Below, one piece after another: positions 6,632 through 57,580 of a DNA stretch of 64,000 nt; the stretch's first letter is position 1; every line of letters begins with the position of its first letter. The DNA is from Patescibacteria group bacterium (GTDB lineage Bacteria; Patescibacteriota; Minisyncoccia; UBA6257; UBA9933). The stretch spans positions 7,626-71,625 of the forward strand of contig JBBTPY010000006.1 in assembly GCA_038065955.1 (NCBI GenBank), given 5' to 3'. The translations under genes and the position numbers were made by a program. The notes under the pieces are model-generated. The model was not told the DNA's origin, ran no database searches, and saw only the letters and a list, made by a program, of their open reading frames with translations.

Positions 6632-7093
6632 ATGAAAGCATTTACCTTAATTGAACTTTTAATAGTAGTTGCCATTATGGCGATTTTAGCCGCCGTCGGT
6701 TCAGTTAATCTTTTTAATTTTCGCGCTCAAAATAATTTGAATTTAACGGTCAATGAAATTATTTCTCTTTTAAGAAATGCCCAAAATCGTTCAATTACTC
6801 AGGAAAACGGCAGTAATTGGGGCGTTCATCTTGAAAATCCGTCAAATCAAGACGATTTTTACGCTTTATTTCAAGGCGCCGTTTATTCTTCGGGCAATAC
6901 GGTTTTAAGAGCAAATTTGCGGCCGACGGTCCAATTTAACGACCCGTCAAGCGGCGCGAGCAAGGACATTATTTTTAATTCAATCAGCGGTTTGCCGTTC
7001 GCTTCTACGACTGTTATAATATCTTTAAAAAGCGATTCTTCTAAAATAAAAACTATCACCGTCAATGCTAATGGCAGAATACAACAATATTAA
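6632..7093 (+). CDS. Type IV (pseudo)pilin with class III prepilin leader
   Basis: N-terminus 'MKAFTLIELLIVVAIMAILAAV' is the prepilin cleavage/N-methylation motif with a hydrophobic helix. Confidence 0.75.
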   Translation: MKAFTLIELLIVVAIMAILAAVGSVNLFNFRAQNNLNLTVNEIISLLRNAQNRSITQENGSNWGVHLENPSNQDDFYALFQGAVYSSGNTVLRANLRPTVQFNDPSSGASKDIIFNSISGLPFASTTVIISLKSDSSKIKTITVNANGRIQQY

Positions 7094-7709
7094 AGGCCAA
7101 TCGCTTGTGGAAATAATAATTGCTATGGCCATCGGGACGATTTTAATCGGCGCTTCGGTTGGTTCCATTGTTTTGCTTTTAAAATATAATTTAAACACGA
7201 AAACGGTTCAAATTGCGTCTTCTTTGAATAGGCAAATGATGGACGATATCCGCTCAATATCAGAATCCGATTGGCTTAATATTTACAATAAAAATAAAGG
7301 AGTAAGTAATCAATATTACATTTCCAGTTCCACGCGGCAGATTGTTTCCGGCGCGGAATCTTTAATTATTGAAGGAAGGCAGTTCAGCCGTTATTTTTAT
7401 ATTGAAAACGTTTCCCGCGACGCCGGCAATAATATTGAAGTTATTTATAATTCGGTTAATGATGACCCTTCTACCCAAAAAATTGCGGTAATTGTTCAAT
7501 GGGGCGGCGGAGGGAATATTAAAGAAGTTCAGTATTTAACCCGTTTTCGCAATGCGGTTTTTGTCCAGACCGATTGGTCGGGCGGATTTAACCAAGAGAT
7601 ATTTGCCACTACAAGCGCCGGAACGATTATTAATGGCAAATTCGCCACTTCATCGTCCAATATTGATTTTTCTTCAACACCCGGGTCAATTAGATTAATT
7701 TTGCCGTAA
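7065..7709 (+). CDS. Minor pseudopilin-like protein
   Basis: 'KGQSLVEIIIAMAIGTILIGA' is a prepilin-like N-terminal motif. Overlaps the preceding pilin gene by 29 nt; the true start may be M7071. Confidence 0.5.
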   Translation: MLMAEYNNIKGQSLVEIIIAMAIGTILIGASVGSIVLLLKYNLNTKTVQIASSLNRQMMDDIRSISESDWLNIYNKNKGVSNQYYISSSTRQIVSGAESLIIEGRQFSRYFYIENVSRDAGNNIEVIYNSVNDDPSTQKIAVIVQWGGGGNIKEVQYLTRFRNAVFVQTDWSGGFNQEIFATTSAGTIINGKFATSSSNIDFSSTPGSIRLILP

Positions 7710-10909: not shown

Positions 10910-13477
<2,568 letters not shown>

Positions 13478-32285: not shown

Positions 32286-32911
32286 AAATTACAAAAAATA
32301 AAATTCAAGTACTATTAGTCCATGGTGGAATGACCTTCAAAAATGAGAAGGATTATTTACACTACTTAAAAACTAAAAAAGTAACGACAACGAAAAAAGT
32401 TTCTTGGACAGGAGGTTATTTAGAGAAAAGTTTAGGCAAAAGGTTTGAAATAATCTCGCCAAGAATGCCTTTGCAGGATTTTGCGAAGTACAGAGATTGG
32501 AAGATATTTTTTGAGAGATACTTATCACTTATCAAAAATAAATACATTTTGATTGGTTCGTCTTTAGGCGGAGTTTTCCTTGCAAAATATCTTTCCGAAA
32601 ATAAACTTCGCAAAAAGGCATTGTCGGTATATTTGGTTTGTCCACCTTTTGACAATACATTGCCAGGTGAAGATTTGGTCGGTGGCTTCACGCTCGGCAA
32701 TAATCTGTCGTTGATTGAGAAGAACTGCAAAAATCTCCATTTGTTATTTTCAAACGATGACGATGTTGTGCCCGCCGCTCATGCCGATAAATACAAGCGA
32801 AAATTGAAAAATGCCCATGTTGTGATTTACAAGAGCAAAGGCGGGCATTTCAACATCGCCAAATTTCCTGAAATAGTTAAGATGATTTTTGCAGATATTA
32901 AAAGAAACTAG
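32282..32911 (+). CDS. Alpha/beta-fold serine hydrolase (YdeN/RBBP9-like)
   Basis: 'VLLVHGG' N-terminal strand; nucleophile elbow 'IGSSLGG'; late 'GGHFN' His region. Confidence 0.5.
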   Translation: MKITKNKIQVLLVHGGMTFKNEKDYLHYLKTKKVTTTKKVSWTGGYLEKSLGKRFEIISPRMPLQDFAKYRDWKIFFERYLSLIKNKYILIGSSLGGVFLAKYLSENKLRKKALSVYLVCPPFDNTLPGEDLVGGFTLGNNLSLIEKNCKNLHLLFSNDDDVVPAAHADKYKRKLKNAHVVIYKSKGGHFNIAKFPEIVKMIFADIKRN

Positions 32912-33010
32912 CCGCCAATTTTTTCAAAAAAGAAAGCCGAAGCCCGTGCGGATTCCTCCCCAAACCCCTCCTCCGCGCGGGCGAGTCCGAATTCCGCACC
33001 CCGCCACCAT
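32909..33010. repeat. Partial copy (R orientation) of the GC-rich intergenic repeat family; begins at the stop codon of the upstream gene
   Basis: 'tagccgccaatttt...gcggattcctccccaaacccctcctccgcgcgggcg' aligns with 36676-36760. Confidence 0.6.
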
Positions 33011-33340
33011 TCCCCCAGAAAAATGAGGCGGGGTGCGGTCAGAGTTTCTTCTCGAAAAAAGTTCGAGCAAATGCTAAAATAACACCACATTAGACGATTT
33101 CTTTCGCCCTCGCCCCTCGCTTCGCTCGGGGCTCGGGCTTCGGCGGGCAGAAAATAAAGGTAATTCCACGGCTTTTTGAAGTCAACAAAAAGCCGTTGGT
33201 CAAAAATTCGGCGGTTCGAGCCGATTTTTTTGAGAAAATTTTTCATCTCTGAAAAATTATCCTCCAAAGCGAAATTTTTGGCTTGGTTGGCTTCAATTAT
33301 CCAGTTCCGGACGAGTTCGAGCCAATGATTGCCTTTTCGC

Positions 33341-34591
33341 TCAAAATCGCTTTTTTTCCTCAATATCTTTTTTCCCCGACATCAGATCGTTTTTCTTTGG
33401 CTGAAACTCCGGCAGTTCTAAATCGCCTTCAAGGTAAGCGTCCATCAGGCGATTTATTTTTGTCTTAATTTTTTCTAATTCTGTTTTAAGATTTTGAGCG
33501 AAAAGGTCAGATGAGTGGCGGGATTCTTTATTCTCATTTTCCAGTTTTGTCAAAAACTTTTCCCGCCACTCATCGGGCAAAGAAACTTTTTGACAAAGAT
33601 TTTTCACTTGTTCAGTTAAAACTTCTTCCCGCAAAAAGCGATTTTCAGTACACGAAATAGTTTTGCTCTTGTGGGTGCAACGATAATAAATAAATTTCAA
33701 ACCACTTTTCTTGATGTGTCGCTCGGCGGTTATGGCATATCCACATACCCCACAAGTAGCAAAACCTAAAAACTGAAAATTCTTTGGTCCTCGCTTTTTG
33801 CGGGGCTTCCCATTCTGAACAAGTGCATTTTGAATTTGGTCAAAAAGTTTCTTTGCAATCATTGGCTTATGCGAACCTTGATGCACCTCGCCACGATATT
33901 GAAAGTGTCCGTAGTAAAAAGGATTTTTCAAAATATGTTCAATACTGGCGAGGTGCAAAGGTTTACCTGTTTTGCCAACCAAGCCAAGAGAAAACATTTT
34001 GCGTTGAATAGCCGTGAGTGTGTATTGCCCCGAAGCAAAAGCCCCTAACGCTTCTTTTACTTTGCCAAAAGTTTTTCTATCCGGCTCAATCGTCCGCAAA
34101 CGAGGTTCGTTGAAATATCCTAAAGGGGCTTTTGCGGAAAGTTCACCACGGCGTATTTTTTGGCGAATACCACGCAAAATGTTTTCTCTTAAATTGTCGG
34201 TGTAATACTTTGCTTGTCCGAAGGCGACACTCAACATAAATTTTCCTTGCGGTGTCGCCTCGAACCAGAAAGTAGGGAATTTTAGCGCAACAATCTTTTG
34301 CGTATCCACCAAATAAATTACTCTGCCACCGTCTATGCTATTTCTCGCTAAACGGTCTGGATTCCACGCTAAAATTCCCTGTGCAGTGCCTTTTTCAATT
34401 TCGCCAAGCATTTCGTTGAAAACTACTCTACCCGGCTCTTTGGCGGTCTTGCTCTCGTAAAATTCTTTTTCAACGAAAAGATTATTTTGCTTGGCGAATT
34501 CCCGAAGCTCCGTCAATTGTGCCTCAATACTTAAAACTTGGCGTTCTTCGTCTTCACTTGATTTTCTACAATAGATAAAATATTTGATCAT
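33341..34591 (-). CDS. Large serine recombinase (resolvase/invertase catalytic domain, recombinase domain, zinc ribbon)
   Basis: N-terminal 'YCRKSSEDEERQVLSIEAQ' contains the catalytic Ser. C-terminal 'CGVCGYAITAERHIKKSGLKFIYYRCTHK' is the zinc ribbon of large serine recombinases. Confidence 0.85.
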   Translation of the reverse strand: MIKYFIYCRKSSEDEERQVLSIEAQLTELREFAKQNNLFVEKEFYESKTAKEPGRVVFNEMLGEIEKGTAQGILAWNPDRLARNSIDGGRVIYLVDTQKIVALKFPTFWFEATPQGKFMLSVAFGQAKYYTDNLRENILRGIRQKIRRGELSAKAPLGYFNEPRLRTIEPDRKTFGKVKEALGAFASGQYTLTAIQRKMFSLGLVGKTGKPLHLASIEHILKNPFYYGHFQYRGEVHQGSHKPMIAKKLFDQIQNALVQNGKPRKKRGPKNFQFLGFATCGVCGYAITAERHIKKSGLKFIYYRCTHKSKTISCTENRFLREEVLTEQVKNLCQKVSLPDEWREKFLTKLENENKESRHSSDLFAQNLKTELEKIKTKINRLMDAYLEGDLELPEFQPKKNDLMSGKKDIEEKKRF

Positions 34592-34799
34592 AGCTTCGGG
34601 AATTAAATTGATAAAGGCATTGCACTTACACCGACAATTTCTAAAAATCTCTCCTCATCGGCTCTTGCGCCTTTGGCGCAATCCAAACTTTGTTTGGGAA
34701 CCGCCGACTTTCGGCGGGAATTCTTTTGGCGGAATTCAAAACCCCCTGGAATTTCTTGGCGGAAACCAATGCCGAGGGGCGAAGCCCCGAGGCAACTTC

Positions 34800-35020
34800 T
34801 TCGGCAAATCAAATTTGGTGGTGTTTGTTTAAAAAAGTCAGAACCCATTTTGCAGAAAATCCCAACGAATGAAACGGAAACAATGCGGACTCGGCAGGGC
34901 AAACTATTTTTCTGGGGTTTTGGATTTGCCCTGCCTCGGCTGATTTCCCGCCCGCAGGAGGGGTCTGGGGAGGAATGCGGGCGGGTTTCGGACTGGGGGT
35001 TTTCGGAAATTCGGCGGCTA
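34800..35020. repeat. Left copy (L orientation) of a ~200-bp inverted repeat flanking the XRE-NDT-HD cassette
   Basis: Reverse complement of 34837-35020 aligns nearly base-for-base with 36676-36870. Contains a perfect 10-bp hairpin stem cccgcccgca/tgcgggcggg. Confidence 0.8.
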
Positions 35021-35101
35021 TAAAATAATTGAATAATTCTCTCATATTTGTTATTATAATACTGTCAGTTAAAACAAGCAACAGTATTATGTTATCAATA
35101 T

Positions 35102-35305
35102 ATGGAAACTAATTTATTAGGACAGAAAATAAAGAAGCTACGGACAAAACTTGGTCTTTCTCAAGACGATTTTGCTCGCAAGGCGGATGTTCCCTACACA
35201 ACGCTTACAAAGGTCGAAACAGGCGTTATAAAAAAACCTTCGGTTTTTATGGTGAGCAAAATCGCTAAAGCGCTTGATGTTAATATTGAAGAATTAATAA
35301 AATAA
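35102..35305 (+). CDS. XRE-family helix-turn-helix transcriptional regulator
   Basis: 'LGLSQDDFARKADVPYTTLTKVETG' HTH_3 pattern; 67 aa. Confidence 0.6.
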   Translation: METNLLGQKIKKLRTKLGLSQDDFARKADVPYTTLTKVETGVIKKPSVFMVSKIAKALDVNIEELIK

Positions 35306-35310
35306 ATATT

Positions 35311-35697
35311 ATGAAAACAGTAGTACTTTGCGGCAGTCGCCGTTTCAAACCGGAAATGAGAGAATTTGGCAAAAAGCTAAAAGAGCTTGGTGTCGTTGTG
35401 TTTGAACCTTATTTACATTCCGGTCAAGACGAATGGGCGAAACTGTCGGACGACTATAAAAAATTTGTTGCTCTCGGACTAACCCATGATCATTTTTACA
35501 AAATACAAATAGCTGATGTGGTTTTTATTTTTAATAAAGACGGTTACACTGGGAATAGTACGACTTTGGAAATCGGTTATGCGGTAGCGACAGGAAAACC
35601 AATTTATGCGTTAACAAGTGACGAAGAATTATGCCGCCATGTTTTATTTAGAGAGATAATTTCTTCACCCAAAGAACTTGTTAAAAAATTGAAATAA
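35311..35697 (+). CDS. Nucleoside 2-deoxyribosyltransferase-like (Rcl/DNPH1-type Rossmann) protein
   Basis: 'VVLCGSRRF' N-terminal strand and 'GYTGNSTTLEIGYAVATGKPIYAL' match the NDT-like 'G.S.GT..E.G.A.A.GKP' signature. Confidence 0.45.
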   Translation: MKTVVLCGSRRFKPEMREFGKKLKELGVVVFEPYLHSGQDEWAKLSDDYKKFVALGLTHDHFYKIQIADVVFIFNKDGYTGNSTTLEIGYAVATGKPIYALTSDEELCRHVLFREIISSPKELVKKLK

Positions 35698-35700
35698 ATT

Positions 35701-36678
35701 ATGAAATACACAGATAGAGTATATGGAAATTTTGAAATTACAGAACCAGTAATTTTGGAATTGATAAATTCCTCAACTTTTCAAAGATTAAAGGAAATAG
35801 ATCAAGCTGGATATTTCGAACCACATTTCCCAGGCACTGCACATTCGCGTTTTGAACATTCAATCGGTGACTATTTACTTTTGAAAATGTATGAGGCACC
35901 AATTGAAGAACAAATTGCTGGTCTTATTCATGATGTTTCTCACTCGGCATTTTCTCATTGTATAGATTATGTCTTAGATGCTGGCTCTGAAAAAGAACAT
36001 AATCATCAAGATAATGTTTTTGATGATTATGTTAGAAAATCAGAAATACCAGAAATTCTTAAAAAATATAATCTCGATTTGGATTATATCCTTGACGATA
36101 AAAATTTTCCTCTTAAAGAAAACGATTTGCCAGATTTATGTTCAGATAGAATAGATTATTCATTAAGAACAGCTACTGTTTTTAAGGAAATAGAAAACGG
36201 AAAATTTTTTATTTATAATCTCACAGCAAAAGACGGAAGGTGGATTTTTAAAGATTTTGAAAGTGCAAAAAAATATGCAGACTTATTTTTGAAACTCAAC
36301 ACTAACTATTATGCGGGATTACCTTCCGCTGTTATGTTCCGAACGGTTGGAGATTATTTGCGATATGCACTTTCAAAAGAATATATTTCTGAAACCGATT
36401 TATACACAACTGATAAAATTGTTCTTTCAAAAATAGAATTTCATATCACCGACGACTCAAAATTGAAATTGCTTTTTGAAAGAATGAATAATAAAATCGG
36501 TTTCAGAAATGACCCAGTTAATTATGACGGAAAAGTATTTTGTAAATCACGAGTGGTTGATCCTCTTTGTTGGCATAATGGGGAAATAAAAAGAGTTTCA
36601 GAAATAGAGCCGAGTTGGTCTGATATAATTACGCGGGAATCAAAACCAAAAGAATATTTTTTAAAATTTGATAGATAG
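35701..36678 (+). CDS. HD-superfamily metal-dependent phosphohydrolase
   Basis: 'HSRFEHSIGDYLL' (His) and 'LIHDVSHSAFSH' (HD) motifs. Confidence 0.7.
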   Translation: MKYTDRVYGNFEITEPVILELINSSTFQRLKEIDQAGYFEPHFPGTAHSRFEHSIGDYLLLKMYEAPIEEQIAGLIHDVSHSAFSHCIDYVLDAGSEKEHNHQDNVFDDYVRKSEIPEILKKYNLDLDYILDDKNFPLKENDLPDLCSDRIDYSLRTATVFKEIENGKFFIYNLTAKDGRWIFKDFESAKKYADLFLKLNTNYYAGLPSAVMFRTVGDYLRYALSKEYISETDLYTTDKIVLSKIEFHITDDSKLKLLFERMNNKIGFRNDPVNYDGKVFCKSRVVDPLCWHNGEIKRVSEIEPSWSDIITRESKPKEYFLKFDR

Positions 36679-36995
36679 CCGCCGAATTTCCGAAAACCCC
36701 CAGTCCGAAACCCGCCCGCATTCCTCCCCAGACCCCTCCTGCGGGCGGGAAATCAGCCGAGGCAGGGCGAATCCATATCCCCAGTCAAATGTTTCGCCCT
36801 GCCGAGTCCGCATTAGTTTTCAGGGTTCTCCGCAAAATGGGTTCTAACTTTTTCCAACAAACACCAAAATCAAGCCCCTTGATTTTGGGATATTCTAAAC
36901 TTTGCGCGAAATCATTTTGAGGGAAACTAGCCCGCCTCCGCTTCGCTCCGGCGGAACGCTCGGGCATTTCGGCGAAAAATTTTTGCGACTGACAA
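36676..36995. repeat. Right copy (R orientation) of the inverted repeat; starts at the HD-gene stop codon and extends ~320 bp
   Basis: 'tagccgccgaatttccgaaaacccccagtccgaaacccgcccgcattcctccccagacccctcctgcgggcggg...' is the reverse complement of 34837-35020. Its distal part (36900-36995) is mirrored at 39042-39130. Confidence 0.8.
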
Positions 36996-37069
36996 AATAG
37001 GTATTACTTCTATCTTATCATAATATCTAAACTTTGGATATTGATTTCTTGGATATATCTTGTTAATAT

Positions 37070-37291
37070 ATGGTTAAGTCAATCCAAACAAAGGAATATG
37101 CCTATTTTATTGAGCGGTTACGGAAGGCTCGACTAAGGGCTGGTCTGACACAGGCGCAGGTCGCGAAAAAGATAGGTCGCCCCCAATCGCATATATCAAA
37201 TGTTGAATCTGGACAGCAAATGGTTGATGTAGTCGAGCTTCAACGATTTGCAAAGATATACGGAAAAGATATTAACTTTTTCCTAAAATGA
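37070..37291 (+). CDS. XRE-family HTH regulator
   Basis: 'AGLTQAQVAKKIGRPQSHISNVESGQ' HTH_3 pattern; 73 aa. Confidence 0.6.
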   Translation: MVKSIQTKEYAYFIERLRKARLRAGLTQAQVAKKIGRPQSHISNVESGQQMVDVVELQRFAKIYGKDINFFLK

Positions 37292-37620
37292 AATCTGCCA
37301 AACTTATTTCAGTTTTACTTTCCTTTGTGATTATTGTTAGTGTATTCGGTGTTTTTGCTGCTCCCAACACAACAGAGGCGTTTGTCCAAAAATATGAATA
37401 TTCAGAATATGATCCGCCTGGTGTTTTCTCTGGAGTTTGGCATGGACTTCTTGCGCCATACTCGCTTGTTGCCCGTTGGTTTATGGACGACGGAGCGATG
37501 TACGCAGTACCGAATACTGGTTGGTTTTATGACGCAGGATTTTTGATTGGTATAGTCGGCTCGATTCCTATTGGTTGGGCTGCTGCTATAATTTCCACAA
37601 TTGGACATATCTTGTCTTAA
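37288..37620 (+). CDS. Small membrane protein, unknown
   Basis: N-terminal TM or signal segment plus C-terminal hydrophobic segment; start overlaps the upstream stop. Confidence 0.3.
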   Translation: MKSAKLISVLLSFVIIVSVFGVFAAPNTTEAFVQKYEYSEYDPPGVFSGVWHGLLAPYSLVARWFMDDGAMYAVPNTGWFYDAGFLIGIVGSIPIGWAAAIISTIGHILS

Positions 37621-37632
37621 TTTCTAAAACTT

Positions 37633-38115
37633 ATGAAAATTAAACTTATAATTGGAATTCTCGTCGTGCTGGTTTTAATCTTTGGTTGGATAGCTTTTTC
37701 TCCAGCTACTCAAGAATCGTCAGTCAAGAAAGCACATTTTGCTACAAAATTATCAGCATCAGGAAGTATCACCTGTACTTATCCTCAAATACTGCATGCC
37801 AGCTATCAATCCGGAGAAATAACGCATGAATTACCGAAGCCGGAGACAAACCCTATCATAATGACTTTTAGCGATATTGATTCTGAAGTTGCAAAAGTTA
37901 AGTTCATTGATGCAACGCAATCCATTTCAGAAGTTCCACTCGTGAAAGTTATTGATACAGTAGAAAAGTTGATGTTCCTCGAAGGAAACGGTGAGCCCTA
38001 TATAACTGTTCATACAATTTATAAGGAAGATGGCGTTGCAACCTATGAAAAATCAATGTCGCTATTAGGTATCCCAGTAGGTACGGTGGGAATGGGTAGT
38101 TGTGTCGATTATTGA
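37633..38115 (+). CDS. Secreted hypothetical protein
   Basis: Signal-peptide-like N-terminus 'MKIKLIIGILVVLVLIFGWIAFS'; no recognisable motif. Confidence 0.3.
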   Translation: MKIKLIIGILVVLVLIFGWIAFSPATQESSVKKAHFATKLSASGSITCTYPQILHASYQSGEITHELPKPETNPIIMTFSDIDSEVAKVKFIDATQSISEVPLVKVIDTVEKLMFLEGNGEPYITVHTIYKEDGVATYEKSMSLLGIPVGTVGMGSCVDY

Positions 38116-38180
38116 AGGATAAACCCACTACGTAGCTTTAACTTGTTCTTCATCGTCATATTTAGTATTATATAAGTGAT

Positions 38181-38672
38181 ATGTCCTTACACCGAAAAAA
38201 GTACCAAAATGCTGTTTTGTACTTATGCCGGAAGCTAAAAGGCGAGGTACGCGGCAAGAAAAAATTAGCGAAATTGCTTTATTTCGCGGATTTTGATTTG
38301 TACGAAAAAAGTCAGAAATCAATAACTGGCGATGTTTACTGTGCGCTCCCAATGGGGCCGGTTCCGGCAGCTTTGGAAGAAATCACAGCTGAAATGACAA
38401 AAAAGAAAATGCTTGGCGTTGAGCACATCGAAGAACGAGAGGGATACAATCCTACTGAAGTATATAAGTGTCTCATCGAACCCGATCTTTCTGTTTTTGA
38501 TGACGAAGAAAAGAAAATGCTCGATCGGATTGTTGTCAAATATGGTCATCTCAATGGCAAACAATTAGAAGAATTATCTCACGCCGAAGCACCATACATC
38601 GGTACGGAGTTACGAAAAGAAATTCCATACGAACTGGCTTTTTATCGTGGTACAGATTTTAGTGAAATATGA
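38181..38672 (+). CDS. Panacea (DUF4065) domain antitoxin-like protein
   Basis: 'LAKLLYFADFDLYEKSQKSITGDVYCALPMGPVPAAL' matches the Panacea core and is paralogous to the 25636 C-terminal domain. Confidence 0.55.
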   Translation: MSLHRKKYQNAVLYLCRKLKGEVRGKKKLAKLLYFADFDLYEKSQKSITGDVYCALPMGPVPAALEEITAEMTKKKMLGVEHIEEREGYNPTEVYKCLIEPDLSVFDDEEKKMLDRIVVKYGHLNGKQLEELSHAEAPYIGTELRKEIPYELAFYRGTDFSEI

Positions 38673-39040
38673 TTCAGTTTCTGTACCACGACGGCATTCA
38701 GAAAGAAATCGCCGCCCTTGATGAGCGGCGATTTCGTACTATACGCAGTGGTCTGTCTGCATTTGAGAGACTGTGTGAGGTGCAATTTAATCCGACAAAT
38801 CCGCGACAAATCATTGCGCCGGCTAAAATACACCGCATTACGCAGAATGATATTTGGACACTCTGGAAAACTGAACTCGTTGTACCTAATTCGGGTTTAC
38901 GCCCAAATCAATGGCCGCGAATGTGGTTTGTGGTGAAGGGCGCAATTATTGCTTTTTTGTGCATATCCTCTCATGTTGATAATTACAACGATGAGGATAT
39001 GAATCGTTTAGCTTTGTCGCGGGTGTCGGATTTCTTCTGA
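38669..39040 (+). CDS. Putative toxin partner of the Panacea protein (family unrecognised)
   Basis: Start overlaps the Panacea stop (ATGA coupling); 123 aa; C-terminal hydrophobic stretch. Confidence 0.3.
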   Translation: MIQFLYHDGIQKEIAALDERRFRTIRSGLSAFERLCEVQFNPTNPRQIIAPAKIHRITQNDIWTLWKTELVVPNSGLRPNQWPRMWFVVKGAIIAFLCISSHVDNYNDEDMNRLALSRVSDFF

Positions 39041-39041
39041 A

Positions 39042-39130
39042 ATGTCGCAAAAATTTTTCACCGAAATGCCCGAGCGTTCTGCTAGAGCGAAGTGGAGGCG
39101 GTTTAGTTCCTTTTTTGAATTTTTTAGGAG
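39042..39130. repeat. Partial L-orientation copy of the intergenic repeat family
   Basis: 'gtcgcaaaaatttttcaccgaaatgcccgagcgttctgctagagcgaagtggaggcgg' is ~90% identical to the reverse complement of 36921-36990. Confidence 0.7.
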
Positions 39131-53104: not shown

Positions 53105-53185
53105 TGCCCGGGGTGGGAGTCGAACCCACATGCCTTGCGGCACACGATTTTAAGTCGTGCGTGTAAACCATTCCACCACCCGGGC
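53105..53185 (-). tRNA. tRNA-Leu (anticodon TAA), long variable arm
   Basis: Reverse complement GCCCGGG...CCCGGGCA; anticodon stem CACGA/TCGTG with loop CUUAAAA; variable arm TGCCGCAAGGCATGT; T-arm GGGTTCGACTCCC. Confidence 0.8.
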
Positions 53186-53216
53186 ATATTTATAACTAAT
53201 AATTAACTACTAACAG

Positions 53217-53288
53217 AGGCCTGGGGGAGAATTGAACTCCCGTATAAGAGTTTTGCAGACTCTTGCCTTACCACTTGGCTACCAGGCC
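53217..53288 (-). tRNA. tRNA-Cys (anticodon GCA), U73 discriminator
   Basis: Reverse complement GGCCTGG...CCAGGCCT; anticodon stem AGAGT/ACTCT with loop CUGCAAA; T-arm GGGAGTTCAATTCTCCC. Confidence 0.75.
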
Positions 53289-53333: not shown

Positions 53334-54872
53334 TTATTTCCAAATCAAGCGGTCTCCTTCGGAGATAATCGTATCGGATTCAATAAAAAGGCCACATTCT
53401 TCATTTGCCGAAATCTGGCTGATTTCGCGCTTATGCTGTCTTAAACTGACGACTTTTCCAAATCCCGCTTTTTCATTATTTTTTATAATTTCAAATCGGG
53501 AATTATTTTTGATGACGCCGGAGAGCGCGCGGCCGCCGACAAGCTGTTCTTTATTTTTCCGGCTGAAAATTTTTAAGACTTCAAATTCGCCAAGCGGCTT
53601 CGGTTTTTCCAATAACTTAACTTCATTTTCCACGGCTTCTATCAATTCGTATATGATATTTGAGATAATGATTTTAATTTCCTGAATTTTAGCCAAATTT
53701 TCGGCGATTTTATTGACTTTAGTTCCAAATCCGATAATGAGCGCTTTGCCGGCAATAGCCGTTTTAATGTCACCGTCGGTTATTTCTCCGATTGATTCGT
53801 TTAAGATGTTTATTTTTACGCCTTCATGTTTAATGTTTTTAATAATTTCCGATAAAGTTTCAAGCGAGCCGGAAGTATCGGCTTTGATAACGAGATTTAA
53901 TATTATTTTCGAATTTTCACGAACTAGTTTAACGGCAGAATTGGAAATTTGCGTGATTGGCGACAGATTCGCGTCAATTTGCGAACCAGTGAAAAATTCT
54001 TCTCCGATTTGAGGTAAAGTTTCAAATCCTAAAATTATTGCCGGGCTTGATGGCGAAAGTTCATCAATAGTTTTGCCTAAAAAATTCGTTAAATTTTTAA
54101 TTTTTCCGACGGCGCTTGCCGTGAAGATTTTTTCGCCGGTTTTCAAAATGCCGTTTTCAATAATAACGCTGGCGACAATTCCGCGATTAGGGTTGATTTT
54201 GGTTTCAATAATAATGCCGCTGGCCGGGACATTGGAATCGTAAGTTAAATTTTCTAATTCCGCGGCAAGCAAAATTAAGTCCAAAAGTTCGTTAATGCCT
54301 TGGCCGGTTTTAGCGGAAATCGCCTGCCAGGAAATATTGCCGCCAAATCCTTCAAGTAAGATGCCGTTTGCCGTTAAATCCTGTTTTGTTTTTTCAATAT
54401 CGGCGCTCGGTTTGTCTATTTTATTAATGGCGACAATAAACGGCGTTTTGGCCGCATTGAGAATTTCAATTGATTCTTTAGTTTGCGGTTTGACGCCATC
54501 GTCAGCCGCTACGACTAAAATTGCCAAATCGGACACTTTGGCGCCTCGGGCGCGCATTTTTGAAAAGGCCTCGTGGCCGGGCGTGTCTATGAAAGTGATT
54601 TTCCTGCCTCCGGCAGGCGCGGAACTACGCGGACTTAACGCAGACCCACGCGGAAATTCTGCGTTGTTCTGCGTCTGTTCTGCGTCTATCCGCGATTCAT
54701 GCGAAGCATGAATAATCTCGTAGGCGCCAATGGATTGGGTAATGCCGCCGGCTTCTTTGGCCACAACGCCGGTTTTGCGGATATAATCCAAAAGACTGGT
54801 TTTTCCGTGGTCAACATGTCCCATTATAACAACAATCGGAGGGCGCGGTAATAAAGTTTGAGTTTTTTTCAT
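53334..54872 (-). CDS. infB: Translation initiation factor IF-2 (short form) with a repeat-derived in-frame insertion in the G domain
   Basis: 'GHVDHGKTSLLDYIRKT' (G1), 'DTPGHEAF' (G3), 'NKIDK' (G4). ~30 extra residues lie between 'GAYEI' and 'KITFIDTPGH'. Confidence 0.9.
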   Translation of the reverse strand: MKKTQTLLPRPPIVVIMGHVDHGKTSLLDYIRKTGVVAKEAGGITQSIGAYEIIHASHESRIDAEQTQNNAEFPRGSALSPRSSAPAGGRKITFIDTPGHEAFSKMRARGAKVSDLAILVVAADDGVKPQTKESIEILNAAKTPFIVAINKIDKPSADIEKTKQDLTANGILLEGFGGNISWQAISAKTGQGINELLDLILLAAELENLTYDSNVPASGIIIETKINPNRGIVASVIIENGILKTGEKIFTASAVGKIKNLTNFLGKTIDELSPSSPAIILGFETLPQIGEEFFTGSQIDANLSPITQISNSAVKLVRENSKIILNLVIKADTSGSLETLSEIIKNIKHEGVKINILNESIGEITDGDIKTAIAGKALIIGFGTKVNKIAENLAKIQEIKIIISNIIYELIEAVENEVKLLEKPKPLGEFEVLKIFSRKNKEQLVGGRALSGVIKNNSRFEIIKNNEKAGFGKVVSLRQHKREISQISANEECGLFIESDTIISEGDRLIWK

Positions 54873-54958: not shown

Positions 54959-55048
54959 GGAGGCGTGGCTGAGCGGTTTAAAGCAGCATCCTGCTAAGAT
55001 GTTGAGGGAGCAATCCTTCCGAAGGTTCGAATCCTTCCGCCTCCGCCA
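54959..55048 (+). tRNA. tRNA-Ser (anticodon GCT), long variable arm; CCA encoded
   Basis: Acceptor GGAGGCG/CGCCTCC plus G-CCA; anticodon stem GCATC/GATGT with loop CUGCUAA; variable arm TGAGGGAGCAATCCTTCCG; T-arm AAGGTTCGAATCCTT. Confidence 0.8.
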
Positions 55049-55050
55049 AA

Positions 55051-56055
55051 TTGGAAATGTACGAACTTTATTTTAATATTCTTTTAATTGCAGTCGGGAT
55101 TTTTGCGCTTATTAAATCCGGCGCTTATGTCGTTAAGGCGTTAATTAATATCGCTCATTTTTTAAAAATATCCGAATTCACGCTTTCTTTTATTTTGATG
55201 GCGGCCGCCACTTCGCTCCCGGAATTAGGCATCGGATTGAACGCCGCTTTCAATAATACGCCACTTATTTCTTTGGGGAATATTTTAGGAGCCAACATTT
55301 TGGTTTTAAGTTTGATTTTAGGAGCGATGATTTTAATTGAAGGCAATTTGACGCTGAAAAAACATTCGCCGGCCCATTCCAGTTGGTTTAATTTTTTTCT
55401 GGCAATTTCGCCGGTTATATTATTGATTGACGGCGATCTTTCGCGGTTTGACGGCTTGATTTTAATCGCGCTTTTTGTTTTAAATTTAGGCAGACTTTTG
55501 AAATTTCGGGAGATTTTTAATCATCATCGTGTCAAGCATTTCTTGAATGGAGATGAACATCGGCTGGCTGATTTAAATACAAGTTTTTTTTTAAAAAATT
55601 TATTTATTTTTATTCTGGCAATCGGCGTTTTGCTGTTATCGTCTTATTTAATAGTTAAAGGAGTGGAAATATTTTCTTTGAAATTGGGAATACCGGAAAT
55701 ACTGATAGGAATTTTTATTGTCGCTTTGAGCACGACTTTGCCGGAATTGTCGTTCGGTATCAAGGCGATTTTAAGCCGGCGCAATGAGATGTCTTTGGGC
55801 AATCTTTTAGGGACGGTCGTTTTTAATTCAACGCTGATTCTGGGAATTGTTTCCTTAATCAGTCCGATAAGAATAGAGAATGGCGTTTCTTTTTGGGTTA
55901 GCGCCGGAGTTATGATTTTGATAATTTTTTTGGCAAATTTATTTTTGAAAACTCGCGATTCGCTCAATCGTCTGGAAGGATTATTATTGATTTTGATTTA
56001 TTTTGTTTTCGCGATTATATCTTATGTTTTGGCGTTACCCAAAATCCCAGTCTGA
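55051..56055 (+). CDS. CaCA-family Na+/Ca2+ (cation/Ca2+) exchanger, YrbG-like
   Basis: Two alpha-repeat signatures: 'MAAATSLPELGIGLNAAF' and 'ALSTTLPELSFGIKAIL'. Confidence 0.75.
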   Translation: MEMYELYFNILLIAVGIFALIKSGAYVVKALINIAHFLKISEFTLSFILMAAATSLPELGIGLNAAFNNTPLISLGNILGANILVLSLILGAMILIEGNLTLKKHSPAHSSWFNFFLAISPVILLIDGDLSRFDGLILIALFVLNLGRLLKFREIFNHHRVKHFLNGDEHRLADLNTSFFLKNLFIFILAIGVLLLSSYLIVKGVEIFSLKLGIPEILIGIFIVALSTTLPELSFGIKAILSRRNEMSLGNLLGTVVFNSTLILGIVSLISPIRIENGVSFWVSAGVMILIIFLANLFLKTRDSLNRLEGLLLILIYFVFAIISYVLALPKIPV

Positions 56056-57580
56056 ATTTTCCCGAAAGCGCAAGCCGCGTTTGCGCTTCAAGAGCCGGCA
56101 GGGCGCCGAAGATAATCATCGTCAACATAAGCAGAGGCCATTGGAAAATCATTAAAAGATATTTGTGTTTGCCGTAATTTTTAGGAAGCGGCGGCAAAAT
56201 TACCATCGTTAAATAAGCGGAAGTAACGATGCCGACCATTGAAAAAGTCATCAGCCATCTTGTGATTTGAGGGAGATTATACGCCAAAAGAGTTTGCTTG
56301 AATGCTTCTCCTCCCAGAACCAGCGGCATCCAGCCGAGAAAAAAAATAATTAAAGCGTTTGTTGACCAGGACCAGACGCCTTCAATATAGACGAAGCTGT
56401 AGCGGATTTTTTTATAAAGCGGAATCTTTTTGTTTTTTAAAAAGCCGAATAGAAAATAAGGGATATTTTCAGCGCCCCAAGCCCAGCGTCTTTGCTGTTT
56501 ATATAAATTTTTCATCGTTTGCCAAAAAGTTGGCGCCGCGTTGGCGTCCATTTTTATGGGATAATAAATGGGGATAACGCCGTAATTTCCGTTGTGCCGA
56601 AGCAGACATTGCCAGAAAATTCGCGAGTCTTCGCTGACCATATTTTTCTGCCATAAATCAACGTTGACCAGCGCCTGAAACGGCATTGAATGGGAAGAAA
56701 AAGTGGTAAGCCGTTCGGCTCTTTCTTGTTGAATTGTATGCCAAAAAGTGGCGGAAAACGCGACTACGCGAGCGAGCGCCGGCGCCTGCCAAATGTTATT
56801 AACGTAAAATGGCACCGGCTGATAACTGAAATTCTGGGGATTGGGCGTGTTTAAATAAATATAAGTCAATCGGCTGAAATAATCGGGGAAAATAACGGTG
56901 TCAATGTCAAAAGCCGAGACGATGATTTTATCATAAGGAATTTTCAATGCGTCAATGATTTTTTCTCTGGTTTCTTTTCCGGCGAACGCGATATTTGATC
57001 CTTTGCCGGGAATTTCATCGAGTAAGTCTTTTGGATGGATGGTGATTAAGAATTTGAAAAATTGAGAACCGAATTCTTTTTTAATTTTTTGAGTAATTTC
57101 TAAAATTGATTCGCCGGCGCGCTCTTCGGCCGCCAAAACGACAATTATTTTATCTTTCGGATAATTAACCGGAATTAAACTTTTTACCGATGCGCGGATA
57201 GTTTCTTCGGATTCGTTGTAAAAAGGCAAAATAATTAAATGATAAATATCTCGCCAATTTTTGTTTATAGTTTGCAGTTTGTAATTAGCAGTTAATTTTT
57301 CCAGCCAATTTATTTTTAAATTTTCTTTAATTTTTTTAAATGCCGAGCGCAGGTGCAGAGAAAGATAAATTGTTTTTAATAGCCAATAAACATCAAAGGC
57401 GATAATAAAAAAAGCCGTAAAAACCGGAGCGAAATAAGATAAAGCGAAAATCCCTAAAAGTGTTGACCAAGCCAATGTTCCTGGCAAAATTTCCAAAAAT
57501 CTGTATATTATCCGTTCTTTGGGGATAATTAAGTCTTGCGACGAGCCGATTTTGGTGTAATAATATTCTTTAGGAAGCAT
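56015..57580 (-). CDS. Membrane-embedded processive family-2 glycosyltransferase (cellulose/chitin-synthase-like)
   Basis: 'QQRRWAWG' QxxRW motif; upstream D/DxD regions ('VVLAAEERAGE', 'SAFDIDT'); multiple TM helices at both ends. Confidence 0.6.
   Translation of the reverse strand: MLPKEYYYTKIGSSQDLIIPKERIIYRFLEILPGTLAWSTLLGIFALSYFAPVFTAFFIIAFDVYWLLKTIYLSLHLRSAFKKIKENLKINWLEKLTANYKLQTINKNWRDIYHLIILPFYNESEETIRASVKSLIPVNYPKDKIIVVLAAEERAGESILEITQKIKKEFGSQFFKFLITIHPKDLLDEIPGKGSNIAFAGKETREKIIDALKIPYDKIIVSAFDIDTVIFPDYFSRLTYIYLNTPNPQNFSYQPVPFYVNNIWQAPALARVVAFSATFWHTIQQERAERLTTFSSHSMPFQALVNVDLWQKNMVSEDSRIFWQCLLRHNGNYGVIPIYYPIKMDANAAPTFWQTMKNLYKQQRRWAWGAENIPYFLFGFLKNKKIPLYKKIRYSFVYIEGVWSWSTNALIIFFLGWMPLVLGGEAFKQTLLAYNLPQITRWLMTFSMVGIVTSAYLTMVILPPLPKNYGKHKYLLMIFQWPLLMLTMIIFGALPALEAQTRLALSGKFRLGFWVTPKHKI

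Follow-up and report, generated by a model that had tools for sequence, protein, structure and literature searches.

The infB gene, which encodes translation initiation factor IF-2, of a tiny groundwater bacterium of the candidate phyla radiation (CPR; Patescibacteria) carries an in-frame interrupted palindrome between the codons for the G2 and G3 regions of its G domain. We analysed this palindrome in a 64,000-nucleotide (nt) stretch of contig JBBTPY010000006.1 (GenBank assembly GCA_038065955.1), referred to here as the window. Taken as one joint explanation, it is likely that the segment is a genuine insertion of selfish palindromic DNA that is read through in translation, and that it is a translated relative, without an internal open reading frame (ORF), of nuclease-bearing cassettes in a repeat family found across the CPR/Patescibacteria.

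An in-frame palindromic insertion in infB

The host gene lies at 53334..54872 on the minus strand and encodes a 512-amino-acid (aa) protein, a short form of IF-2 without the long N-terminal region of E. coli IF-2. It was identified from the ORF and its Pfam domains (GTP_EFTU and IF-2), from homologues in Wolfebacteria and Patescibacteria that carry the name IF-2, and from bacterial IF-2s as the best solved-structure matches of the protein. The whole insert comprises codons 56–90 (ASHESRIDAEQTQNNAEFPRGSALSPRSSAPAGGR; 54603..54707, minus strand), as delimited by aligning DNA and protein with the closest homologue, an insert-free protein of 480 aa (P0001, locus L120) that is 85–90% identical and reads ...EIIHNEKKVSFIDTPGH. 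Three codons of the L120 DNA stand opposite infB codons 56–90, so that infB is longer by a net 96 nt (32 aa), and the junction residues of the insert are H/A and R/K.

An initial annotation, made from the DNA of the window, had placed an in-frame palindromic repeat between G2 and G3 of IF-2 and quoted a minus-strand segment encoding ...GAYEIIHASHESRIDAEQTQNNAEFPRGSALSPRSSAPAGGRKITFIDTPGH. Segment (at about 54618–54683) and peptide were both found inside the 512-aa ORF, and ORF and alignment agree with the proposed position. The estimate of about 30 aa for the insertion holds for the net gain over the closest homologue, the stretch replaced being codons 56–90.

Motif and fold analysis resolved the insert into three adjacent hairpins, a long palindrome with a mini-hairpin on either side. 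The long interrupted palindrome (77 nt, 54618..54694) is the core of the repeat family, our family D3, delimited from motif clusters, folds and nhmmer matches. Along it run four CGCNGA motifs, whose starts are 10, 11 and 10 nt apart, then a loop of 1–3 nt and four inverted motifs; the inverted arms quoted in the initial annotation are present, as just one of these four repeated motif pairs. Mini-hairpin 1 (54695..54713; ATTCATGC-TTC-GCATGAAT on the coding strand) was recognized from folds and from comparison with loci L120, L121 and L127–L135. The host I-H codons form its outer half and are repeated in inverted orientation in its inner half; this junction recurs in all same-site IF-2 inserts examined. 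In mini-hairpin 2 (54603..54617; CCTGCC-GGA-GGCAGG on the coding strand), also seen in the folds, the 3′ half matches the host G-R(K) codons ahead of K-I-T-F and the 5′ half is their inverted copy.

As DNA, the 116-nt stretch submitted to folding gave −34 to −36 kcal/mol (z −6.5 and −7.9) and, as RNA, −56 to −60 kcal/mol (z −6.6 and −8.2), values that no shuffle equalled. The sense RNA of the infB insert gave −55.8 kcal/mol, and a strong hairpin of about −56 kcal/mol is thus predicted in the infB mRNA. GC content peaks locally at 0.58–0.59 at the insert, against a window average of 41%.

The palindrome belongs to a CPR-wide repeat family

The initial annotation had linked the insert to the leuS gene of the same window through a shared 18-mer (CGCGGACTTAACGCAGAC). 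This 18-mer has just two occurrences in the window, one at 54628 and one, within leuS, at 11807; 0.04 matches were expected by chance, and a pair turned up in none of 100 shuffles. That the element is the same was confirmed with an nhmmer profile derived from 34 full copies, which found exactly three copies in the window: that in infB (54617–54695, E 1.7e-18) and two in leuS (10910–13477, identified as an ORF encoding LeuRS). In leuS, a full palindrome (11615..11698, plus strand, E 2e-17) contributes an in-frame peptide of 29 residues, and a half copy consisting of a single arm (11796..11837, plus strand, E 1.2e-8) one of 15 residues. The half copy, 43 kb from infB, holds the shared 18-mer and is identical to the infB arm at 37 of 42 positions.

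Scanning with a degenerate four-motif pattern returned at least 119 genomic stretches, mostly from CPR metagenome-assembled genomes (MAGs). Hosts among the matches listed include Saccharibacteria, Wolfe-, Vogel-, Jorgensen-, Harrison-, Lipton-, Kaiser-, Doudna- and Magasanikbacteria, and others; several copies share a contig in other CPR genomes (for example L028, L039 and L081). The element measures 77–85 nt, and its consensus starts acCGCgGA. Alignment of 20 copies shows CGC.GA and TC.GCG to be invariant, whereas the linkers and the middle and sixth bases differ between copies. The consensus structure of the aligned copies has four helices, and stem covariation in the 20 copies is uninformative on structural selection because the paired positions are invariant. 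What is conserved is thus a sequence motif repeated once per helical turn.

Some matches were set aside. About 20 non-CPR pattern matches among those listed (Flavipsychrobacter, Prevotella and Methanomicrobium among their sources) look like unrelated tandem repeats without an inverted arm; a pattern scan of viral contigs gave 18 stretches, every one an unrelated coding tandem repeat that likewise lacks this arm. Comparison of the element with phage records by blastn gave no match, and a phmmer search of the 35-aa insert peptide, a query too short and too simple in composition, against 1.84 billion representative proteins gave none.

The anatomy of the insert could also suggest that the palindrome grew in situ, by slippage of the 10–11-nt unit and fold-back template switching from a seed hairpin, and never moved. 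Both junctions are inverted copies of host sequence, a typical product of template switching; the arms are tandem 10–11-nt units that slippage could expand; and a relative (P0042, locus L121) has only the two mini-hairpins at the IF-2 site, without the central palindrome. Because of this L121 allele we regard the infB insert as layered. Growth in place does not, however, account for the same motif array, with its invariant CGCNGA, at dozens of unrelated loci in different CPR classes, nor for the near-identity of the infB arm to the leuS arm 43 kb away. The infB copy is also closer to copies in an ATPase gene and in a 23S gene of other genomes (scores of 45–46) than to IF-2 copies at its own site (20–36). 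We therefore consider this alternative unlikely: it may explain the mini-hairpins but not the core.

Related copies enclose a nuclease ORF

At five loci of the copy census, among the matches listed, the arms are not a few nt but 382–402 nt apart. The ORF between them encodes a GxxExxY protein (TIGR04256, E 1e-33; PF13366 PDDEXK_3, E 1e-33). In all eight cassettes examined (these five and three more), a single ORF runs from the N-terminal part of a host protein through an arm peptide, the nuclease and a second arm peptide to the C-terminal part of the host. The hosts are LeuRS (three), LepA (two), RecG, GatB and a membrane protein. Pairwise identity among the nucleases ranges from 51 to 72%, and the D...ExK motif is retained in them. 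Between the arms of the infB copy there is no ORF.

Around more distant GxxExxY genes the inverted arrays consist of other units, such as ATTCGGAT and AACCACTGA, and there are hints in these sequences that arms and nuclease change together. A nuclease-only search gave 71 matches, mostly called as stand-alone proteins of 125–154 aa whose ends resemble arm peptides; it yielded no catalogue of hosts. In these stand-alone proteins (P0231–P0301) the termini read, for instance, MNADKK..., MSTDKK..., ...NQRESAK or ...PRKSVINPR. The sequences suggest that inverted motif arrays bracket most GxxExxY genes and that the start codon lies within an arm. A chimeric query joining IF-2 and the nuclease found no nuclease-bearing IF-2 and retrieved LepA instead.

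Hosts of cassettes (L021, L028, L035 and L112) carry extra short arm-like peptides elsewhere, such as TNAEQTQKNAE near the N-terminus of LeuRS, so that single genes can evidently accumulate several copies. The 862-aa membrane protein of L035 contains two GxxExxY cassettes, both in frame, that differ in arm type; its empty-site counterpart is a 521-aa membrane protein in the window (56015–57580, minus strand), 1.1 kb from infB.

Copies in protein genes keep the reading frame

A census of the reading frame around some 160 copies (matches listed) found 71 inside an ORF that is open for 50 codons or more to either side. Hosts confirmed by Pfam are UvrA, MnmA, aldolase II, a P-type ATPase, LeuRS, RecG and GatB; LepA was identified as a host from P0121 and L028. 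Thirteen of 26 copies without such a spanning ORF were inspected and lay in rRNA, at a gene start or in an intergenic spacer, with no broken protein gene among them. Rfam placed family copies of related loci inside genes for 23S rRNA, 16S rRNA and RNase P RNA. In a Saccharibacteria MAG (L028), the RNase P RNA gene has three palindrome copies (6755–7393), and the same contig has LepA with a nuclease cassette and arm units of the GCGGAT type.

The same sites are reused in IF-2, LepA, LeuRS and RecG. The full leuS copy of the window occupies the LeuRS site that is filled by ORF-bearing cassettes in L021, L062 and L096 and, in L006, by an ORF-less copy; at the RecG site, L024 and L008 likewise pair ORF-less with ORF-bearing forms. 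The LepA cassettes lie between RGITIK...VRMDY and YVLNLIDTPGH, a site that is the structural equivalent of the IF-2 insert turn.

Chance would retain the frame in one copy in three. Every protein-gene copy seen keeps it and is free of stops: the eight nuclease cassettes (at both junctions), about 52 IF-2 inserts of 6–46 aa and the 71 census copies. This strict preservation bears on the possibility that the hairpin is an intervening sequence, whose two ends the long stem would draw together, cut from the RNA by RNase III or by the PD-(D/E)xK protein and followed by rejoining of the exons, so that mature IF-2 would lack the insert. Family palindromes also occur in genes for 16S and 23S rRNA and RNase P RNA, where it is known that RNase III can cut out stem-loop intervening sequences (PMC4990558, PMC11270868). 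The sense RNA has a strong predicted fold (−55.8 kcal/mol), and a 2012 survey counts tRNA-intron splicing endonucleases in the PD-(D/E)xK superfamily (PMC3424549). Removal at the RNA level would, however, free the frame, whereas all the protein-gene copies examined are in frame and stop-free, and for this reason we take the IF-2 insert to be read through. Rfam, searched at E values up to 1 over 54500–54800, gave no match to group I or group II introns or to any other family, and to our knowledge bacteria have no pathway that rejoins mRNA in this way. Excision from RNA is thus quite improbable.

Two further candidates were rejected. A group I or group II intron has no covariance-model match here, and an intein finds neither a Hint domain nor Cys/Ser/Thr junction residues; in the inserted parts of hosts and cassettes, Pfam shows PF13366 alone.

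The IF-2 site accepts inserts repeatedly

Between the blocks aligned with a solved Thermus IF-2 lie 37 residues in this protein but 5 in that of Thermus; alignment with E. coli IF-2 gives the downstream block alone, from residue 439. In an AlphaFold model built with 45 homologues, the insert falls between strands 49–55 and 90–96, and residues 59–87 have a predicted local distance difference test (pLDDT) score below 50. The site is, as we understand the general G-domain fold, the distal turn of the β2–β3 'interswitch' hairpin, far from the nucleotide. The term 'switch-proximal loop', used in the initial annotation, therefore overstates the risk to the protein. The insert would add there, between G2 and G3, a 32-aa loop that is probably disordered and tolerated by the protein. 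Predicted tryptic peptides of the insert region are IDAEQTQNNAEFPR, GSALSPR and SSAPAGGR.

We compared this turn in the query and its 120 best homologues. Some insert is present at this turn in 52 of the 121 related CPR IF-2s; the basal turn of 7 residues is kept in 69, 22 have an extra 6–8 aa (of the type PSASSGQAK) and 30 an extra 13–46 aa. Arm-like peptide motifs (NAE/NAD ... QRxSA) occur in at least 20 of the long inserts. A neighbour-joining ordering of the 121 sequences shows one clade of eight wholly filled with a long insert, the remaining filled alleles scattered, and the query amid empty-site relatives. With the site empty in a relative 85–90% identical, and the query among empty-site relatives, the infB insert appears to be a recent gain or loss.

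Filled alleles share their junctions. The left junction ATTCAT-GYTYCGCAYGAATC-GCRGA is common to all ten other filled IF-2 alleles for which DNA was available (L127–L135), and at the right junction each allele repeats its own host flank in inverted form. The longest such copy, 15 nt in L128 (GGTGATTTTACGACTG-GC-AGTCGTAAAATCACC), takes in the conserved K-I-T codons. A metagenome scan for the conserved left junction added five further IF-2 alleles, all ORF-less.

Other insert types occupy the same turn. A shorter one, of 6–8 aa, reads PSASSGQAK or HSTSSGQMK (P0007, P0008, P0010, P0014 and others) and a third reads EILRVAQDDFA. A recurrent (G/D)DF ahead of KITF resembles, as judged from protein sequence, an inverted copy of the host AAAATC codons.

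Frequent filling of the turn might instead mean that the loop is a functional, lineage-specific addition to IF-2, in contact with the CPR ribosome for example, and that the palindromic nature of its DNA is incidental. Inserts at the turn are common (52 of 121), one clade of eight has the long form throughout and the frame is always kept. The closest relatives, at 85–90% identity, are nonetheless insert-free, and both length (6–46 aa) and sequence vary freely in a low-complexity peptide that is predicted to be disordered. The same DNA repeat also sits in unrelated proteins and in RNA genes, where it is the DNA motif that is conserved and not the peptide, different frames yielding NAE, TQN or RG. 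A functional loop accordingly retains little probability.

An assembly chimera or a misjoin at the repeat, conceivable for a GC-rich palindrome in an AT-rich MAG and raised in the initial annotation, is effectively excluded because 22 contigs assembled independently, from different samples and with different assemblers, all encode this exact 512-aa protein, the infB DNA of the four loci fetched (four samples; ENA and Logan assemblies; one a 695-kb contig) has no mismatch to the window, the frame is kept and many other assemblies have homologous inserts.

Other features of the window

tRNA genes flank infB at 53105–53288 (minus strand) and 54959–55045 (plus strand), and tRNAs are the only Rfam matches in the window at the gathering threshold. 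A large serine recombinase ORF (33341–34591, minus strand) lies amid nested long inverted repeats (32900–39110), among them arms of 140 nt that are 94% complementary (34882–35021 and 36675–36814). The region 32900–39110 probably represents a mobile island that has become integrated and has no connection with the IF-2 palindrome.

Comparison with known systems

The closest functional analogue of the CPR palindrome is the Rickettsia palindromic elements (RPEs), a likeness by description with no claim of membership. RPEs reportedly go back to Ogata et al. (2000), as reviewed by Delihas (2008). Both kinds of element are short palindromes forming long stem-loops, found in reduced genomes, in frame in conserved genes and also in structural RNA genes. 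RPEs lie in frame in 19 protein genes and also in tmRNA (transfer-messenger RNA) and RNase P RNA genes, and one product is translated and active (PMC2229807). The CPR element shares the features of such a functional class, being a multi-locus repeat with a stable stem-loop, inserted in frame with the ORF continuing, and present in structural RNA genes, the last in related loci and with no copy in the window. It differs from RPEs in taxon and sequence, in arms that are arrays of a 10–11-nt unit with invariant CGCNGA, in the reuse of sites across distant lineages and paralogues, and in the nuclease ORF of full-length forms; the review gives no autonomous partner for RPEs (PMC2229807).

Intervening sequences (IVSs) of rRNA are likewise selfish stem-loops that sit in rRNA helices and sometimes have a small ORF in the loop, as in the 23S IVS of Coxiella with S23p (PMC4990558), and 16S and 23S genes do contain members of the CPR family. 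For insertions in CPR rRNA, a survey from 2024 describes group I-like introns, LAGLIDADG genes and 23S_rRNA_IVP ORFs, and the words palindrome and hairpin are absent from it (PMC11270868). Unlike IVSs, the infB, leuS, lepA and recG copies lie in protein genes, in frame, and the CPR ORF encodes a PD-(D/E)xK protein (PF13366) instead of the four-helix-bundle IVS protein.

With inteins and homing endonucleases the family shares an in-frame nuclease ORF at conserved sites of essential genes in distant lineages, a patchy distribution, empty sites in close relatives and ORF-less derivatives. It differs from inteins in lacking a Hint domain and Cys/Ser/Thr junctions and in apparently staying in the protein, and from homing elements in that the infB copy has no nuclease ORF, which occurs only in related copies; cleavage of the site can be proposed by analogy.

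Bacterial MITEs (miniature inverted-repeat transposable elements) such as Correia/NEMIS and ERIC also occur inside genes (PMC2229807, PMC10969869). Like the CPR element, they are small, non-autonomous, rich in inverted repeats and readable through in frame. The CPR element, however, has no visible target-site duplication, no TA ends and no evident insertion sequence transposase related to it; its arms are shared with ORF-bearing cassettes, and its candidate partner is a PF13366 PD-(D/E)xK protein of about 120 aa, not a known transposase. Repetitive extragenic palindromes (REPs) and bacterial interspersed mosaic elements (BIMEs), associated with RAYT transposases, are extragenic, 20–40 bp long and tagged with GTAG or CGTC (PMC3733652). 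They too are GC-rich multicopy hairpin repeats, whereas the CPR element is 77–85 nt, intragenic and without a GTAG or CGTC tag.

Discussion

We propose that a selfish palindrome of this family would survive at sites that can take an added surface loop, or an added RNA helix, without harm. The family may spread or persist through the nuclease, which would recognize the invariant arm motifs or cut target sites, and ORF-less palindromes such as that of infB could arise by loss of the ORF or by mobilization in trans. How the family moves we infer from its sequences. Invariant arm motifs, intact nucleases and reuse of sites in distant lineages are our grounds for suggesting a nuclease-linked cycle, homing-like or MITE-like. 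More speculatively, insertion might involve target ends that, once broken, fold back and serve as their own template; we suggest this because both junctions carry inverted host-flank copies and no target-site duplication is seen.

Several observations weigh against the reading of the IF-2 palindrome as a relative of mobile nuclease cassettes. There is no GxxExxY gene in the 64-kb window, and none of about 45 filled IF-2 alleles has a nuclease ORF. Clustering of cassette nucleases by site is weak for LeuRS, where they are 67–72% identical, and absent for LepA, where the figure is only 55–56%. Comparison of empty and filled IF-2 sites gave inverted host-flank copies in place of a target-site duplication (a possible 10-nt direct repeat was seen at one rRNA copy, L068). 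A flank co-conversion test detected no effect localized near the insert. Simple homing sits poorly with an infB copy that is nearer to copies at unrelated loci than to same-site IF-2 copies, and yet matches the leuS arm of its own genome at 37 of 42 positions. Site reuse could merely reflect a scarcity of insert-tolerant sites, and translation and retention of the insert are deduced from frame preservation. The function entry for PF13366 reads 'Unknown' in the 2012 survey (PMC3424549).

More tentatively, the IF-2 palindrome could be the degenerate end-state of an undescribed CPR mobile element; we regard this fuller picture as possible, at slightly less than even chances. In such an element the hairpin arms would be arrays of nuclease-binding motifs and the GxxExxY PD-(D/E)xK protein would be the cargo. 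Its targets would be conserved positions in essential protein genes and in structural RNA genes; spliced from neither RNA nor protein, it would survive by being translated in frame as a loop or domain on the surface that is tolerated. The link to the nuclease and the reuse of sites look new, and the IF-2 instance alone would be a new example of a known phenomenon; we found no paper joining Patescibacteria, palindromic and in-frame, in a literature coverage that was incomplete and leaves room for an earlier description.

Should this picture be correct, the orphan PF13366/TIGR04256 family would gain a function, and odd CPR insertions in core proteins and rRNAs would be explained. It offers a testable hypothesis for the large GxxExxY/PF13366 family and joins CPR rRNA-gene insertions with unexplained loops in CPR proteins, which are usually handled apart. 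Essential, conserved proteins (IF-2, LepA, LeuRS and RecG) across the CPR radiation would bear translated selfish DNA, with consequences for CPR gene annotation, for core-gene alignments and phylogenies, and for our view of how far the G domain of a translational GTPase tolerates insertion. Beside Rickettsia, the CPR would provide a second, independent system in which palindromic DNA has colonized coding sequence.

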